Source of the DNA: Escherichia phage fEg-Eco06
Reading direction: 5' to 3' (one strand)
DNA length: 45,491 nt
Sequence record: PQ141284.1
Notes under the pieces: generated by a model
Databases searched by the model: none
What the model saw: only the letters and a program-made list of their open reading frames with translations
What the model was told of the DNA's origin: nothing
In this document: positions 1 through 45,491 of the stretch, one piece after another
How the letters are laid out: the number at the start of each line of letters is the position of its first letter
How positions within the stretch are numbered: the first letter of the stretch is position 1
Made by a program: the position numbers and the translations under genes

Positions 1-125
1 CCAAACGCAACAATAGAAGAGACTATTGCAGGAGATACAACAATACAAACACCAATAAAATTCACTTGCACACTGAGATAGAATAGGCTACTATTCATTT
101 ACGCAAACGAGAGGAGAGACTGAAG

Positions 126-3250: not shown

Positions 3251-3272
3251 ATCTATTTTCGGTAATGACTAG

Positions 3273-3301
3273 TTGACTATTACCCTCGACCCTATTATAT
3301 T
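3273..3301 (+). promoter_or_regulatory. sigma70-like promoter
   Basis: TTGACT (3273-3278), 17-bp spacer ending CCCTAT, TATATT (3296-3301); 34 nt upstream of the 3335 gene. Confidence 0.55.
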
Positions 3302-7342: not shown

Positions 7343-8824
7343 ATGTTAACTATGAACGGTCATAATCAGGGTGTTAAGACAAAACACCGGGAATGGCTGC
7401 AGCACTTCAATAAATGGCAGAAGGTTCGCCATGCGCTGGAAGGCGACCTTATTCGCTATCTGCGCAACGTTGGGAAGAATGAGCCGGACCCGACCTACGC
7501 GGCACAGCGCCAGGAAGAATACGAGAACGGCGCTATCTGTTACAACTTCACCAAGAGAACGCTGGCGGGGATGGTCGGCAGTGTCATGCGCAAAGACCCT
7601 GAGCAAATTATCCCGCATGAACTGGAATACCTGTTGCACAACGCTGACGGTTCAGGCGTCTGGCTGTGGCAGCACGCGCAGGATACGTTAATGGAGATTA
7701 ACTCGATAGGACGTGGTGGGTTGCTGGTTGACGCCCCGGAGACTGCTGCCGCAACGGCAGCTGAACAGAACGCAGGGTTATTAAACCCGGTCATCGCATT
7801 CTACACCGCAGAGAACATCATCAACTGGCGACTGACCCGCGTCGGTTCTGTTAACCGTGTGACAATGGTCGTGTTGCGTGAAGTGTGGGAATACTCAGAA
7901 CCTGGAGCAGAGTTCGAAACTAAGTTCGGTGAACAGTACCGCGTCCTTGACCTGATTGATGGTCGCTACCGCCAGCGCATTTACCGTTTCGACGCCGAGG
8001 GCGGCGCTCAGGGCGAAGTAATCGAAATCTTCCCGGAACTCGGCGAACAGTTACGCGGCAAAATCCCGTTCACGTTCATTGGTGCAAGCAACAACGATGC
8101 AACCATTGACGATGCACCTTTGCTGCCGTTGGCTGAGCTTAATATTGGGCATTTCCGCAACAGTGCAGACAATGAGGAGTCCAGCTTCGTCGTAGGCCAG
8201 CCTACTCTGTTCATCGCCCCCGGTGAGAACATGAGCATGGAACAATGGAAAGAAGCCAACCCGCACGGAGTGCGTATGGGGTCACGTTCTGGCCATAACA
8301 TCGGTTACGGCGGCAATGCGTTTCTGGTCCAGGCCGGTGAGAACAACCTAGCCAAGCAGAACATGCTGGATAAAGAGAATCAGGCCATCCAGATTGGTGC
8401 GCAGCTTATCACCCCTACCCAGCAAATCACCGCTGAATCAGCCCGCCTGCAACGTGGTGCCGACACGTCCGTTATGGCGACAATTGCACGTAACGTAAGC
8501 ATGGCGTATACCGATGCGCTAAAGTGGGTTGCGGGTATGCTTGGGCTTAGTGACGGCACTGAAATTGAGTTCAAACTGAACATGGAGTTCTTCCTGCAAC
8601 CAATGACCGCCCAGGACCGCGCTCAGTGGATGGCGGATATTAACGCGGGCCTGTTACCGGCTACCGCTTACTATGCCGCGTTGCGTAAGGCGGGGGTAAC
8701 TGACTGGACAGACGAGGACATTCAGAACGCTATCGAGGATGCGCCGCTGCCGTTAGGTGCTGTTACTCAGGTGGCGGGGGAGATTCCGCAGTCGGCGCAG
8801 CAACAGGACACCACTCAGCCGTAA
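7343..8824 (+). CDS. portal protein (putative)
   Basis: 493 aa ORF between terminase and head morphogenesis gene; AAGAGGA RBS. Confidence 0.6.
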   Translation: MLTMNGHNQGVKTKHREWLQHFNKWQKVRHALEGDLIRYLRNVGKNEPDPTYAAQRQEEYENGAICYNFTKRTLAGMVGSVMRKDPEQIIPHELEYLLHNADGSGVWLWQHAQDTLMEINSIGRGGLLVDAPETAAATAAEQNAGLLNPVIAFYTAENIINWRLTRVGSVNRVTMVVLREVWEYSEPGAEFETKFGEQYRVLDLIDGRYRQRIYRFDAEGGAQGEVIEIFPELGEQLRGKIPFTFIGASNNDATIDDAPLLPLAELNIGHFRNSADNEESSFVVGQPTLFIAPGENMSMEQWKEANPHGVRMGSRSGHNIGYGGNAFLVQAGENNLAKQNMLDKENQAIQIGAQLITPTQQITAESARLQRGADTSVMATIARNVSMAYTDALKWVAGMLGLSDGTEIEFKLNMEFFLQPMTAQDRAQWMADINAGLLPATAYYAALRKAGVTDWTDEDIQNAIEDAPLPLGAVTQVAGEIPQSAQQQDTTQP

Positions 8825-21082: not shown

Positions 21083-21098
21083 CGTTGGTGTAAGTGAA

Positions 21099-21127
21099 TA
21101 GTACGCTATTATATTGGGGTGTGCAAG
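21099..21127 (-). promoter_or_regulatory. sigma70-like promoter (TTGCAC-N17-TACTAT family)
   Basis: minus strand TTGCAC (21127-21122), 17-bp spacer, TACTAT (21104-21099). Confidence 0.55.
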
Positions 21128-21233
21128 TAGTGTGCTAGAATAATTTTGCGCCTAGTGTCGCACACGAAAAGCGGGTGGTTCCCGTCTGGCGCATTTCCTT
21201 TAACCAGTAACCTCTTAACCAAAGGATTAAAGA

Positions 21234-34420: not shown

Positions 34421-34708
34421 CTAACTATAATAGTTCGCTATTAGGGCGTCAACCTGTTTAAACGAACCAACGACAAAAACATTAGCACCACGCTTACGCA
34501 TCCGCTCGTGCTCCCGTAACTGGTGTGGATCCGGCTTCGTGCTTTCGTCTTTCTTTATCTCGACGAACCAGATGACGCCGCCGGGGAGAATTACCAGCAG
34601 GTCAGGGGCGCCGGAACGTCCTTCGTAGGAAAGTTTACGAACGAGGCCACCAATGGCCTCGAATCGGTCTTTTGCGTATTTCTGTATTTTGCCCTCAGGC
34701 GTACTCAT
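34421..34708 (-). CDS. VRR-NUC domain nuclease
   Basis: ATG 34708 within track ORF 34421-34744; PDLLVILPGG...FVEIKKDE...QLREHERM segment. Confidence 0.6.
   Translation of the reverse strand: MSTPEGKIQKYAKDRFEAIGGLVRKLSYEGRSGAPDLLVILPGGVIWFVEIKKDESTKPDPHQLREHERMRKRGANVFVVGSFKQVDALIANYYS
34424..34452 (-). promoter_or_regulatory. sigma70-like promoter (TTGACN-N17-TATAGT family)
   Basis: minus strand TTGACG (34452-34447), 17-bp spacer, TATAGT (34429-34424); overlaps 3' end of VRR-NUC gene. Confidence 0.5.
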
Positions 34709-37841: not shown

Positions 37842-37870
37842 ACTATAATAGCTAACTATTCATGTGTCAA
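37842..37870 (-). promoter_or_regulatory. sigma70-like promoter (TTGACA-N17-TATAGT)
   Basis: minus strand TTGACA (37870-37865), 17-bp spacer containing GAATAGT, TATAGT (37847-37842). Confidence 0.6.
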
Positions 37871-40763: not shown

Positions 40764-40792
40764 ACTATAATAGCGAACTATTCACATGTCAA
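40764..40792 (-). promoter_or_regulatory. sigma70-like promoter (TTGACA-N17-TATAGT)
   Basis: minus strand TTGACA (40792-40787), spacer containing TGTGAATAGT, TATAGT (40769-40764); second ACTATTCACAT box at 40821-40831. Confidence 0.6.
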
Positions 40793-40856
40793 TGGGCTTT
40801 TCTAAAATAATTAATATGGTACTATTCACATATTAACTGACTAAGGAGTAATTGAC

Positions 40857-41072
40857 ATGCAACCATCTGAACTAGGCATCCGTATGGAACAACGCCGTAA
40901 AGAACTCGGCATCTCCCAGCGCCGTCTGGCTGTCCTGACTGGCGTTTCTCAGGGCGCGATTAACCAACTGGCACTTGGAGTAACTCAGGACGTCCGCCCG
41001 GCGACGCTGTTTAAACTGGCGGAAGTGCTTGAAGTAGACGCCAAGTGGTTGGCGTTAGGTGAAGGGGCTTAA
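40857..41072 (+). CDS. XRE-family HTH transcriptional regulator (Cro/CI-like)
   Basis: 71 aa; LGISQRRLAVLTGVSQGAINQLALG helix-turn-helix; AAGGAG RBS; divergent from early operon. Confidence 0.75.
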   Translation: MQPSELGIRMEQRRKELGISQRRLAVLTGVSQGAINQLALGVTQDVRPATLFKLAEVLEVDAKWLALGEGA

Positions 41073-41090
41073 GCCCCTTTTCTTTTTATT
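41063..41090 (+). terminator. intrinsic terminator
   Basis: AAGGGGC / GCCCCTT stem with TTAA loop followed by TTCTTTTTATT. Confidence 0.65.
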
Positions 41091-41283
41091 GCACCTTTAT
41101 CGGGTATCTTTTGCGAAACTTACCTAACCCGCAGTACACGCTGTAAGCCTCTGTGTAACTGAACACAACATGATACCCGCGCCCATAAGGAACTACGTTA
41201 AGAACTTCTACTACTTCGCCTCTGTGGTTGGTGTATTTATTACCTTTCAGTTCGTCGCTTACTTCTTTAAATTTACCGCTCAT
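41086..41283 (-). CDS. hypothetical protein
   Basis: 65 aa ATGA-coupled to primase/helicase stop with embedded GAGGAGGA RBS. Confidence 0.45.
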   Translation of the reverse strand: MSGKFKEVSDELKGNKYTNHRGEVVEVLNVVPYGRGYHVVFSYTEAYSVYCGLGKFRKRYPIKVQ

Positions 41284-43547
41284 TCCAAATCCTCCTCTGT
41301 CACTGTCAACATTTCATTCGGTTCGTATATTGTCTTTGGAATCTTGTTATCAGTTATTCTGGTGTTCAGCCTGTAACGACCTGGGATTATCTGATTGTTT
41401 TCGTCAGTACCCGGAACAAGATACCCGGCCTCAACCATTTTCTTAATCTTCCCGCGTTCTATGGCTTCTTTGGAGTTAAACGCCTTTGCGTTGGGGTCTG
41501 ACTGTGCGAGCTTATTCGCCGCGGCGACTGTGATGCCTTCGTTGCCGTTGTAGGTTCCTTCCGCCAGTTCAAACGCCGCGAGTATCGTGGCCTCCGAACT
41601 GTTGACGGCGTTCTCTACGGTTTTACGTACATTTTCTTTACCTTCTTTCGTCAACCCTTCTTCCCGCTCTTTCTCCTCGTCAGTTTTGAACGGCTCGAAA
41701 CCCCACGGCATCAACACAAGCGCCTTGTGTGGTTCAGGCAGGTCCAGGTTTACGATTGTGCCGTATTCCTCTGTGCTACCCAGGAACTCAACCGCTCGGT
41801 ATTCTTTAGGCGGCGGCGCTTCACGGAACTGTACCGACTCCAGCACCATGCCAACCGTCTTCTGCTGAGGCCCGTGCTTGAATTTCGAGTGATATACGTT
41901 TATCTGACGGTCGGTTGCACGTTCGATTGTCAGTTCCACGTCAACACCCGCATACAGCGCCCCACTGCCGCGTGCTTTCTTTCCACCCTTCGGCGTATGG
42001 TGGACAACGCCTACTGCGGCTTTAGTTGCATCGCGTACTTCTTTCAGAATGGCGATAACTTTACCCATGCCGATTGCTGTTGATGAACTGTTCTCGTCGA
42101 ACTTATCAATCGTCAGTGCCAGGGTCTGGTTAAGGGTGTCGAACGCAACCATGCCAATTGGCTCGTCGCCAGCAGTTTCGCGCATTAACTTAATCAGGCT
42201 TTTAAGTTTGCCGACTTCGCCCATATCGATGACATGTACATAATCTTTACCTTCCTCGCCGTATTTAGCCGCGAGCGCATCAATACGTGTACGTGTGGCT
42301 GCCCCACCCTCGCCGTCGATATAGAAATGGTGACAACGCTGGGTGTCAGCCCCTGCAAACCGGTATCCGGCGGCGCTCAGGTACATCATCCCCAGCGTAT
42401 AGAATGATTTGTACGTGCCCGATTCTCCGACGATACCCCAGATACAATCCGACGGCATGTACCCCTCAACGACGAAATCAGCCTTTACCGGCTCCGGTAA
42501 CTCGTCCTCCTCTGAGTCCTCGTCGTCTTCCAGGTCGTCGAGGCTGCATGAGACAGATTCACGCGCCCCCCAACCGATGGCCTCTGCGACTTCACTGAAC
42601 GGCAGCCCGGTCGCATCGCACGCGTACTTCCACACCTCTTTCGGTGACAGGCCTTCTGTCGCCGTAATGTCTGTGTCGTGAATCATGGTTACGTTAGGCG
42701 CTTCGTATCCCTCGCGCGGGAAGCACAGCAGGAAGTCGTCCGGACGCGGCGTTGGGTCACTGTAGTTTTCAGCGTGTTCCGGTGTAGCTGGCATCTTAAG
42801 GCCGCGTGGTGTCATAACTCCGCCGTACTCGAACGCCAGCGCTTCGAACGCATCAGTAAACGCGGAGCGCAGTTCTTCCGGTATCTGGTAATCCGATGCG
42901 CTGCTCACCTCGTAATCCGGTATGCCTTCCAGTAACTCGTCCGGGTCAATCAGGTCGTTGCGACGCGACCAGATAACGGTAGAGCCGACCGGCGGCAGGT
43001 ACATCGGCTGGGACAGAGTGAACCCGCTGCGGTCAGCGCCCATGCCTTCGAAGAAGTGCTCCAGCAAGCCATGACGAACACGGATGATGTCGCCGCCTTC
43101 AACCGGGCGGCCCAGCGGCATGACGACGCGAAAGCGCGGTGACTCATCAGTATGTGATGCCGTGGTATACAGGCACATAACCTGACGGCTGCGCTTAACC
43201 AGGCGCACCGCTTCCTGGTACTCTTCCGGTGTTGCACTGTCGAAGTCCAGATACGCCAGCGACGATTTGCTCACAGACGCGTCACAGCGATAGAAGAAGC
43301 CTTTACGCGCTTGTTTAAAGCCACCGGTTTCCGGGTCTTTTACGGTGCTGTGCGCAGAGTCGCACGCGGCAGTAATATAGCCTGGCGCTGTCTTCGGGTT
43401 GATCCCGTCACGAACAGCATCGAGCGGCTGGATTAACTCTTTCAGGTCATCCAGTGTTGCCGTGTGTGTGGTTCTGACGTTTATATCCTTTTTCTCTGCC
43501 CGCGCGTTGCGACGTGACCACGAGTAGGATAAAATTACATCGGACAT
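41280..43547 (-). CDS. DNA primase/helicase (RecA-fold ATPase with N-terminal primase-like domain)
   Basis: 755 aa; Walker A GESGTYKS, Walker B-like MVAFDTL; large N-terminal domain; ends in EEDLE. Confidence 0.6.
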   Translation of the reverse strand: MSDVILSYSWSRRNARAEKKDINVRTTHTATLDDLKELIQPLDAVRDGINPKTAPGYITAACDSAHSTVKDPETGGFKQARKGFFYRCDASVSKSSLAYLDFDSATPEEYQEAVRLVKRSRQVMCLYTTASHTDESPRFRVVMPLGRPVEGGDIIRVRHGLLEHFFEGMGADRSGFTLSQPMYLPPVGSTVIWSRRNDLIDPDELLEGIPDYEVSSASDYQIPEELRSAFTDAFEALAFEYGGVMTPRGLKMPATPEHAENYSDPTPRPDDFLLCFPREGYEAPNVTMIHDTDITATEGLSPKEVWKYACDATGLPFSEVAEAIGWGARESVSCSLDDLEDDEDSEEDELPEPVKADFVVEGYMPSDCIWGIVGESGTYKSFYTLGMMYLSAAGYRFAGADTQRCHHFYIDGEGGAATRTRIDALAAKYGEEGKDYVHVIDMGEVGKLKSLIKLMRETAGDEPIGMVAFDTLNQTLALTIDKFDENSSSTAIGMGKVIAILKEVRDATKAAVGVVHHTPKGGKKARGSGALYAGVDVELTIERATDRQINVYHSKFKHGPQQKTVGMVLESVQFREAPPPKEYRAVEFLGSTEEYGTIVNLDLPEPHKALVLMPWGFEPFKTDEEKEREEGLTKEGKENVRKTVENAVNSSEATILAAFELAEGTYNGNEGITVAAANKLAQSDPNAKAFNSKEAIERGKIKKMVEAGYLVPGTDENNQIIPGRYRLNTRITDNKIPKTIYEPNEMLTVTEEDLE

Positions 43548-43605
43548 GTTGTATTTCCTTCAGCAAGTAATTTGGCCTCGGCGTTCACCGCGTCGGGGCT
43601 TTCTT

Positions 43606-43839
43606 TTATTCCAGGTCTTCTAAAGTAGCTGTCATTCCGCGAACTTCAGCATCAGCGCTATATTTCCCACCAACGTTTTTCACGACACCGGATTTAACCA
43701 GCACCTTCAACGACCCTTCAATAATGGCTGAACTATAGTACTTAAAATAACTACGGCGCAAGTCGATAACACTGCATGACCCTTTTTTACGTGTTAACGA
43801 AACGACCGCCGTAAATACGCGTGACTGGAACTCTGTCAT
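43606..43839 (-). CDS. hypothetical protein
   Basis: 77 aa; ends in LEDLE. Confidence 0.45.
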   Translation of the reverse strand: MTEFQSRVFTAVVSLTRKKGSCSVIDLRRSYFKYYSSAIIEGSLKVLVKSGVVKNVGGKYSADAEVRGMTATLEDLE

Positions 43840-44006
43840 TTCACATTCTCCTTAATCCACGCTTCCACTTTCTCTGGGTCAAACGTACCGGGCTGACGAC
43901 GGCCCATAATGCGAATACAGCAATCAGGGAACTTCCCACTCTTTAGCCAGTTATTCAGCGTTCGACGAGTAACCCCAATACGCTCAGCTACTTCATTCTG
44001 TGTCAT
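43836..44006 (-). CDS. HTH DNA-binding protein (AlpA/excisionase-like)
   Basis: ATG 44006 with GAGGG RBS (track ORF starts at TTG 44039); NEVAERIGVTRRTLNNWLKSGKFP helix-turn-helix. Confidence 0.55.
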   Translation of the reverse strand: MTQNEVAERIGVTRRTLNNWLKSGKFPDCCIRIMGRRQPGTFDPEKVEAWIKENVK

Positions 44007-44442
44007 TCTCAAACCCTCATTATCAGTTAACGAAACCAAGTATACATTGCGAATAATGGGAAATCAAACATAATCGCACCTATTGACATTATGAAAATCT
44101 TCGTTTAAGGTGCTTCTATATCTTAGTTACTTTGATTCCTGTTCACCTTGTAATACCCGCTTGAAACGCAGCGGCGCCAAAGCGCCAGCGAAGTGTTAAG
44201 CGGCAGATTACTGAACATAAGAATTACCGTAACTTTCCTTCCGTAGTATCTCTGGTTGCCCTGGGCAAGTTCTATTCTCATCGGCAGCATATCTCTTAAG
44301 TATATGATAATTAAAAGTTTCTATAGTTGCCGTGAGCAATGTTGAGAGTACTTCACTCCGCTGGGGTGGGCTAACGCCCACCCACTGCGTTGCGTACTCT
44401 TTTAAGAAACGAAAGAATCACAGCGGCAACGTAACTATTCTC

Positions 44443-44471
44443 TTGCACACCCCAACATAATAGGGTACTAT
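44443..44471 (+). promoter_or_regulatory. sigma70-like promoter (TTGCAC-N17-TACTAT family)
   Basis: TTGCAC (44443-44448), 17-bp spacer, TACTAT (44466-44471); 25 nt upstream of gene at 44497. Confidence 0.55.
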
Positions 44472-44496
44472 TCACTTATCGAAACGAGACAGAGGA

Positions 44497-44697
44497 GTGA
44501 GGGTTATGTTTAAGAAGGGTCAGTTGGTTAAAACTAAACGCGGAGGGCAATATGTATTAGTGTTGCAGGACGAGAGCGAGTATGACGAGGATAATCTGGT
44601 TGACGTATGGGGTCTGGTAAGAAAGAAAACTGGGTTCGCCTCACGCGATAATTTAGAACTCATCGGCAACAATTTTAAATTCAAAGGGGCGAAGTGA
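44497..44697 (+). CDS. hypothetical protein
   Basis: 66 aa, GAGGAGTGAGGG RBS region. Confidence 0.5.
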   Translation: MRVMFKKGQLVKTKRGGQYVLVLQDESEYDEDNLVDVWGLVRKKTGFASRDNLELIGNNFKFKGAK

Positions 44698-45408: not shown

Positions 45409-45491
45409 CAGGTCAATAGGTTACTATTTGTCTTTGTGACTTACGCTGCTGTGTAGCAGCGTATCATTTTTCTCATTTTTGTTCTATTTCA

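Follow-up and report, generated by a model that had tools for sequence, protein, structure and literature searches.

A 14-bp inverted repeat, AATAG-N4-CTATT, recurs throughout Escherichia phage fEg-Eco06 (PQ141284.1; "the window" below is the whole 45,491-nt stretch that was analyzed) and lies in the core of predicted sigma-70 promoters, where a small phage regulator most likely binds it, for example the 71-aa XRE-family protein encoded next to two of the copies. The motif is enriched, occupies promoter-like positions, and is selectively conserved, and the family and fold of the neighboring protein are clear. As the operator is built into at least nine promoters, it points to genome-wide timing of transcription and not to a lysogeny switch. 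Taken as a whole, the system can tentatively be read, at slightly less than an even chance, as Cro-type control of timing in a strictly lytic phage, exerted through a genome-wide operator. We found no earlier description of this palindromic operator of Kagunavirus and Jerseyvirus in the searchable literature, which covered Jerseyvirinae, MB78, SETP3 promoters, and Guernseyvirinae repressors; for timing, only the K1B4 RNA sequencing study discussed below was relevant.

Genome context and annotation of relatives

The 1-kb region around the XRE locus is 92 to 94% identical to Escherichia phages BEU33, Golestan, phiEc3, and K-02, all of the genus Kagunavirus (Guernseyvirinae), and since related Kagunavirus genomes are 43 to 45 kb, the 45.5-kb window probably holds the whole genome. 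Members of Kagunavirus are described as small virulent siphoviruses (PMC11990801). An initial sequence-only reading of the window had seen neither an integrase nor a large CI-like repressor, and none is annotated in the relatives examined (Golestan region and SETP3 genome). It had also described the XRE gene as the only plus-strand gene of its block, which is how the annotations of K1B4 and Golestan show it, between replication genes. Relatives' genomes routinely label this gene "repressor," "Cro," or "DicA." Next to it, between the XRE and helicase-primase genes, a 65-aa gene (41086-41283, minus strand) marks a mosaic spot, at which many relatives carry an unrelated gene labelled "13.88 kDa late protein" or no gene.

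The XRE locus and its two divergent promoters

The features of the locus are as follows; all promoters described here are consensus predictions.

40764..40792, minus strand: leftward promoter, TTGACA (40792..40787)-N17-TATAGT (40769..40764), consensus match 11/12
40769..40782: O1, perfect inverted repeat AATAGCGAACTATT, in the spacer of the minus-strand promoter at about -25 to -12
40781..40808, plus strand: candidate XRE-gene promoter, TTCACA-N16-TAAAAT, consensus match 10/12 only
40813..40826: O2, imperfect copy AATATGGTACTATT, left arm AATAT, one mismatch
40843-40848, plus strand: Shine-Dalgarno sequence AAGGAG of the XRE gene
40857..41072, plus strand: gene for the 71-aa, 434-Cro-like XRE/HTH_3 protein (open reading frame, Pfam, PDB match, and model)
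41061..41090, plus strand: intrinsic terminator, stem GAAGGGGCTTAAGCCCCTT (41061-41080) followed by a T run

The leftward promoter has the 71-aa, 167-aa, NinX-like, and exonuclease genes downstream of it on the minus strand, and its -35 element abuts that of the candidate XRE-gene promoter, so that the two stand back to back. An alternative promoter for the XRE gene is an extended -10 element, TGgTACTAT (40817-40825), which resembles the class A promoters described below; the SETP3 HTH gene, whose sequence we read directly, has a clear TTGCAC-N17-TACTAT promoter at the matching place. The terminator makes the XRE gene monocistronic, and a terminator is annotated at the equivalent position in SETP3.

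The sequence-only reading had proposed an operator arrangement controlling divergent transcription, with two direct copies of ACTATTCACAT as its unit. Both exact copies exist, the second at 40821-40831 and the first at 40777-40787, one base away from the 40778-40788 originally given, and the first does fall within the spacer of the TTGACA-N17-TATAGT promoter. In comparative data the repeats are operator-like, and they coincide with the core of two back-to-back promoters; the 11-mer, however, is not the unit, as the CACAT tail of box 1 varies, with indels, among relatives. The direct repeat actually extends over 25 nt, with 80% identity and a 44-nt spacing (40768-40792 and 40812-40836), and allowing up to one mismatch, ACTATTCACAT has four matches in the window against 0.68 expected, a count reached in none of 100 shuffles. 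The near-matches at 21092 and 44467 share a longer promoter-like motif, TTGCACACCCCAAyATAATAGsGTACTATTCACTTA, and the common core after alignment of all four box matches is the 14-bp inverted repeat AATAG-N4-CTATT. The boxes are the right halves of two copies of this repeat, O1 and O2: box 1 contains only the right arm of O1 and variable flank, the left arm lying outside it, and box 2 covers the right arm of O2. The 25-nt length, the arm outside the box, and the genome-wide recurrence described below had all been missed. O1 overlaps the -35-like TTCACA of the plus-strand promoter by two bases, and its orthologous Jerseyvirus site is AATCGTACTCTATT. O2 covers the predicted start of the TTCACA-N16-TAAAAT promoter or the -10 element of the alternative extended -10 promoter.

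Other candidate units were tried and dropped. Dyad symmetry within the 11-mer ACTATTCACAT itself was one of them. Two larger perfect inverted repeats occur in the region, TTAATATG/CATATTAA around O2 (40811-40818 and 40829-40836, 10-nt gap) and CATGTCAAT/ATTGACATG reaching the HTH start codon (40785-40793 and 40851-40859, 57-nt gap); they were not adopted as the unit because their outer bases vary among relatives and neither was found in Jerseyvirus.

Copies across the genome and two promoter registers

The window has 13 copies of AATAG-N4-CTATT, 8 of them perfect and 5 with one mismatch, where 0.95 would be expected; none of 100 shuffles reached 13. It ranks top in an unbiased count of all 5-Nx-5 palindromes; in SETP3 (Jerseyvirus) the same palindrome again comes first, tied with its own one-base-longer extension, TAATAG-N4-CTATTA. 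Every perfect copy is intergenic or at the 3' end of a gene; seven of these copies, and O2 as well, lie inside sigma-70-like promoters in two fixed registers. Class B promoters have the form TTGACA-N4-palindrome-TATAGT (N17 spacer), with the site between -35 and -10 at about -25 to -12; their members (34429, 37847, and O1) all stand ahead of minus-strand replication/recombination operons. Class A promoters (82, 11552, 21097, and 44459) have the form TTGCAC-N17-TACTAT, with the site at about -20 to -7 and its right arm inside the -10 element. Relative to the -10 element, the two registers differ by 5 bp. Besides O1 and O2, the following copies were located.

82..95: perfect, class A, on the -10 of a plus-strand TTGCAC-N17-TACTAT
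3268..3281: one-mismatch copy ACTAGTTGACTATT, overlapping the -35 of TTGACT-N17-TATATT (3273-3301)
11552..11565: perfect, class A, on the -10 of a minus-strand TTGCAC-N17-TACTAT, ahead of the open reading frame 11322..11525
21097..21110: perfect, class A, over the -10 of TTGCAC 21126..21121/TACTAT 21103..21098 (minus strand)
34429..34442: perfect, class B, in TTGACG-N17-TATAGT 34452..34424 (minus strand)
37847..37860: perfect, class B, in TTGACA-N17-TATAGT 37870..37842 (minus strand), upstream of the DUF2815 and DNA polymerase genes
44459..44472: perfect, class A, over the -10 of TTGCAC 44443-44448/TACTAT 44466-44471 (plus strand)
45415..45428: perfect, with no recognizable -35, just upstream of the terminator hairpin 45442-45463

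The 44459 promoter precedes the rightward early operon, which starts at 44497; the 21097 promoter precedes an operon of superinfection-immunity, phosphoesterase, and PNK-phosphatase genes; and the promoter at 3273-3301 leads into the small-gene, terminase, and structural (late) block.

This distribution, over no fewer than nine promoter regions, does not fit the local genetic switch first proposed, here taken to be a lambda-like bistable lysis/lysogeny switch worked by local, duplicated ACTATTCACAT operators. The locus does have a Cro-like protein and repeated sites at divergent promoters, but the site is genome-wide rather than local, the CACAT part of box 1 is unconserved, and Kagunavirus phages are described as virulent (PMC11990801); for a virulent phage with neither CI nor integrase annotated in the relatives named above, a lysis/lysogeny switch is very improbable.

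Conservation and distribution of the palindrome

O1 and O2 are present in all 38 Kagunavirus loci compared, with invariant arms (AATAT and CTATT at O2), whereas the central tetranucleotide exists in six versions at O1 and in three at O2; the 44459 site is found in 34 of the 38 loci, with five centers. Between the window and SETP3, seven orthologous promoters have arms that are 96% identical, against 46% for the center and 51% for the flanks. The orthologous sites in Jerseyvirus (sequence L039) are the following.

27430: orthologue of 34429
32244: orthologue of 37847
37864: orthologue of 44459
38978: orthologue of 82
15245: orthologue of 21097, inside an annotated promoter

The Jerseyvirus orthologue of the 3268 site also has one mismatch, but on the other arm. 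A composite pattern of class B promoter and palindrome matched 68 stretches in 2.9 million viral contigs, nearly all of them on Kagunavirus or Jerseyvirus contigs, with four contigs outside this check. The palindrome was absent from the other XRE-bearing clades looked at (Klebsiella, Serratia, Cornellvirus, TO17, further IMG/VR groups, and bacterial genomes), and upstream of some distant XRE homologues, 5-N4-5 palindromes were no more frequent than expected by chance. One record of apparently bacterial origin, the 19-kb contig NZ_JACVEL010000022.1 (Taishania pollutisoli assembly, Flavobacteriia), carries a Jerseyvirus-type XRE gene and palindrome sites; its XRE protein is identical to that of SETP3 over the 70 residues compared, and the contig has the look of contaminating phage DNA in the assembly rather than of a prophage.

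Over-representation, dyad symmetry, promoter overlap, and conserved arms around a free center mark the palindrome as an operator rather than a chance repeat. The arms are kept while center and flanks drift, and the site occurs in two registers, so a dimeric DNA-binding protein is the best explanation; placed over the -10 element or in the spacer, such a protein would be expected to occlude RNA polymerase.

We also considered that no dedicated phage protein reads the site, which would then be an intrinsic promoter feature (an AT-rich spacer with overlapping -10-like hexamers on both strands), the site of a host factor, or a recombination or module-boundary sequence. Each arm does overlap or abut a -10-like hexamer (TACTAT, TATAGT, or TATAAT), and in Cornellvirus the promoters have another AT-rich palindrome, TATTA-N6-TAATA, with the right arm forming the -10 element TAATAT. 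Sigma-70 does not read the spacer, however, yet the spacer AATAG is invariant while neighboring bases drift; two registers 5 bp apart are unlike a fixed polymerase element; and the perfect copy at 45415 has no recognizable -35 or promoter. To our knowledge, no E. coli or Salmonella regulator has an AATAG-N4-CTATT consensus, and Cornellvirus infects Salmonella yet lacks the site. We regard this explanation, in any of its forms, as quite unlikely.

The Cornellvirus palindrome is 16 bp long and was seen in VSiP (L042) at 7674, 14869, and 37446; a single symmetric base change separates its five outermost bases on either side from those of the Jerseyvirus TAATAG-N4-CTATTA. As covariation evidence for the XRE protein this was suggestive but was set aside, since the recognition helices are not reliably decodable.

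The XRE protein as candidate regulator

The 71-aa product of 40857..41072, taken for a Cro/CI-type HTH protein from the letters alone, proved to be one: it matches Pfam HTH_3 (PF01381) over residues 11 to 65 with an E value of 2.4e-12 (47.1 bits against a cutoff of 23), and its best PDB sequence match is 434 Cro, also of 71 aa (E value of 5.7e-6, 63 aligned residues). A single-sequence AlphaFold2 model (pLDDT 85.7) has the five-helix lambda-repressor-like fold, with helices at residues 5-17, 21-28, 32-39, 48-58, and 62-66. Foldseek matched the model to HipB, SinR, C-proteins, 434 Cro, and P22 c2 at TM scores of about 0.7 to 0.78; for 434 Cro the score was 0.72 to 0.77 (query- and target-normalized) and the identity, 37 to 40%, was among the highest of the matches. 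Residue Q32, which aligns with Gln28 of 434, is invariant in 434 Cro and in all seven Guernseyvirinae orthologues compared.

Operators of phage 434 are 14-bp inverted repeats, ACAA-N6-TTGT, with a noncontacted center and half-site centers 9 to 10 bp apart. Because these operators are also 14 bp long, we favor the adjacent 434-Cro-like protein as the predicted binder of the palindrome, a possibility to which we would give a little under an even chance. The XRE gene's own promoter carries the weakest copy, O2, which fits what is expected of an autoregulated repressor. Against this assignment, the protein is only 48% identical between Kagunavirus and Jerseyvirus despite identical operator arms, and its recognition helix reads SQGAINQ in one and SQSLITH in the other; orthologues occur in Cornellvirus, TO17, a Klebsiella phage, and a Serratia phage, all without the palindrome; and the sites are most degenerate at the XRE locus itself, especially in Jerseyvirus. 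The genes are also arranged differently: in Cornellvirus, TO17, Klebsiella VLCpiS11a, and Serratia Otaku (L040 to L043) the XRE gene is the first gene of the helicase-primase operon, which lies on its strand, while in Kagunavirus and Jerseyvirus that operon is inverted (41086-44039 in the window) and headed by an HTH_17 gene, and the XRE gene stands alone with its own terminator.

Several other identities of the XRE protein were rejected. A type II antitoxin of the HipB/HigA kind was dropped because the gene is monocistronic, its neighbors lie on the other strand, and no toxin family was found in them; an Aca repressor, because there is no upstream codirectional gene and the 5' neighbor is divergent; and membership of the DicA subfamily (NCBIfam PRK09706), because the protein's 38.9 bits fall short of the cutoff of 101. 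Controller-protein and defense-system readings were likewise rejected, the former on gene context.

The HTH_17 protein as candidate regulator

The gene that heads the helicase-primase operon encodes a second candidate.

43839..44006, minus strand: HTH_17 (excisionase/MerR-like) protein, 56 aa, first gene of the helicase-primase operon

If this protein and not the XRE protein reads the palindrome, it would be made first, from a palindrome-free promoter, and would repress or remodel all palindrome-bearing promoters, the XRE gene's among them; XRE would in that case be one of the regulated products and would recognize a site of another kind. HTH_17 is 81 to 86% identical between Kagunavirus and Jerseyvirus, in keeping with the identical operator arms (against 48% for XRE), it is found only in Kagunavirus/Jerseyvirus-type records (442 records), and it was not detected in any of the four palindrome-free sequences (two complete genomes and two partial loci). 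No palindrome was found in its own promoter, which is that of the helicase-primase operon (TTGATT-N17-TATACT, 44067..44039). In RNA sequencing of K1B4, a coarse time course several infection cycles long, the HTH_17 orthologue (_008) is among only four early genes, and the XRE orthologue (_004) belongs to the middle class and peaks later (PMC12645636). Kagunavirus and Jerseyvirus are sister genera, however, so the co-occurrence of HTH_17 and palindrome amounts to one evolutionary event, which counts against HTH_17. Excisionase-type proteins of this size have no dimerization element and typically bind direct repeats as monomers, and are thus not usual binders of 14-bp head-to-head palindromes. 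A PDB sequence search gave HTH_17 no significant solved homologue (best E value of 0.45). On balance we consider HTH_17 the less likely of the two readers, but a serious rival.

It is also conceivable, if improbable, that both HTH proteins read the same sites, the early HTH_17 and the later XRE protein competing for them or acting in succession. Were this so, the Kagunavirus/Jerseyvirus clade would route its entire early-to-middle program through a single operator present in nearly all sigma-70 promoters in two helical registers, and the two-reader circuit, timing the replication, host-takeover, and late genes, would be a compact and previously undescribed arrangement for a strictly lytic phage.

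Proposed mechanism

Which protein binds, that its binding represses, and how this is timed are all inferred. Host polymerase would start at strong phage promoters, and in most early and middle sigma-70 promoters of Kagunavirus and Jerseyvirus the core would contain an operator to which a small phage-encoded HTH protein could bind as a dimer, excluding RNA polymerase. With the XRE protein in this role, the protein would accumulate from its own promoter, bind the perfect O1, and silence the strong leftward replication/recombination operon (71-aa, 167-aa, NinX-like, and exonuclease genes), while in parallel turning down the polymerase, helicase, early-right, and superinfection-immunity operons through equivalent sites. 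At higher concentration it would fill the weaker, imperfect O2 and so cap its own synthesis. Late transcription would go on, its promoter having only a degenerate site. As TTGCAC/TACTAT promoters are weak by consensus, activation instead of repression may also be conceivable.

Comparison with known regulatory systems

The XRE protein is predicted, by analogy, to work like 434 Cro on its operators. Both are 71-aa single-domain, five-helix HTH proteins in which the glutamine that starts the recognition helix is conserved, and as in 434 OR, the sites here are 14 bp long, have inverted arms of 4 to 5 bp and a variable center (noncontacted in 434), and overlap divergent promoters. The half-site, however, is AATAG here and ACAA(G) in 434; the locus has two sites 44 bp apart, whereas 434 has three adjacent ones, in a tripartite OR between PR and PRM; and there is no CI partner, PRM-type activation, or lysogeny, with the site lying over at least nine promoters of a virulent genome. 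Lacking CI, a tripartite OR, and an integrase, the locus is not a 434-type immunity region.

In temperate actinophages, the CIRs of phiC31 and the stoperators of mycobacteriophages L5 and Bxb1 are genome-wide sites read by one phage repressor. They resemble the present palindrome in being short, highly conserved, and repeated across a phage genome, but they serve lysogenic silencing in temperate phages, whereas the phage here is lytic; stoperators, moreover, are asymmetric and block elongation, whereas the palindrome is symmetric and occupies two registers within the promoter core. The controller (C) proteins of restriction-modification systems, of which C.BclI, C.AhdI, and C.Esp1396I were among the fold matches, are small XRE proteins with a similar fold; as dimers they bind paired palindromic boxes over their own promoter, with concentration-dependent autoregulation. 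Their C-box consensus, GACT...AGTC, is unrelated to the palindrome, though, and here no restriction or methylase gene is adjacent and the sites are genome-wide. DicA shares the N-terminal XRE HTH domain but has 135 aa, with an extra C-terminal domain; the DicA label given to relatives is a nearest-name transfer only.

These distinctions matter in practice. Therapy and food biocontrol are common reasons for isolating Kagunavirus and Jerseyvirus phages, which also serve as a small synthetic-biology chassis (PMC11990801), and the labels "repressor," "Cro," and "DicA" can be misread as temperate behavior. An XRE gene beside a recurrent early- and middle-promoter site in a lytic genome accounts for such annotations without lysogeny. 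The result is a testable regulatory code in which two promoter classes share one 14-bp operator with two candidate readers, and it makes a set of candidate regulated promoters available for engineering Kagunavirus and Jerseyvirus phages.

Other elements of the intergenic regions

About 35 nt from the 21097 site, where the superinfection-immunity operon and a tail-chaperone gene diverge, the intergenic positions 21145-21209 (plus strand) match the Rfam int-alpA RNA (RF02996) at 36.6 bits against a gathering score of 35.8 bits. Between the HTH_17 gene and the early-right operon, a noncoding stretch of approximately 450 nt (44100-44460, plus strand) that includes the hairpin GGGGTGGGCTAACGCCCACCC has a minimum free energy of -113.8 kcal/mol (z score of -4.95 against shuffles); transcribable from TTGACA-N17-TAAGGT at 44083, it may be a leader or a small RNA. 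Finally, near-identical hairpins, AAGGCCCC...GGGGCCTT, occur at operon ends (14308, 18632, 31186, and 37114) and also in SETP3 and VSiP, and this family probably represents shared intrinsic terminators.
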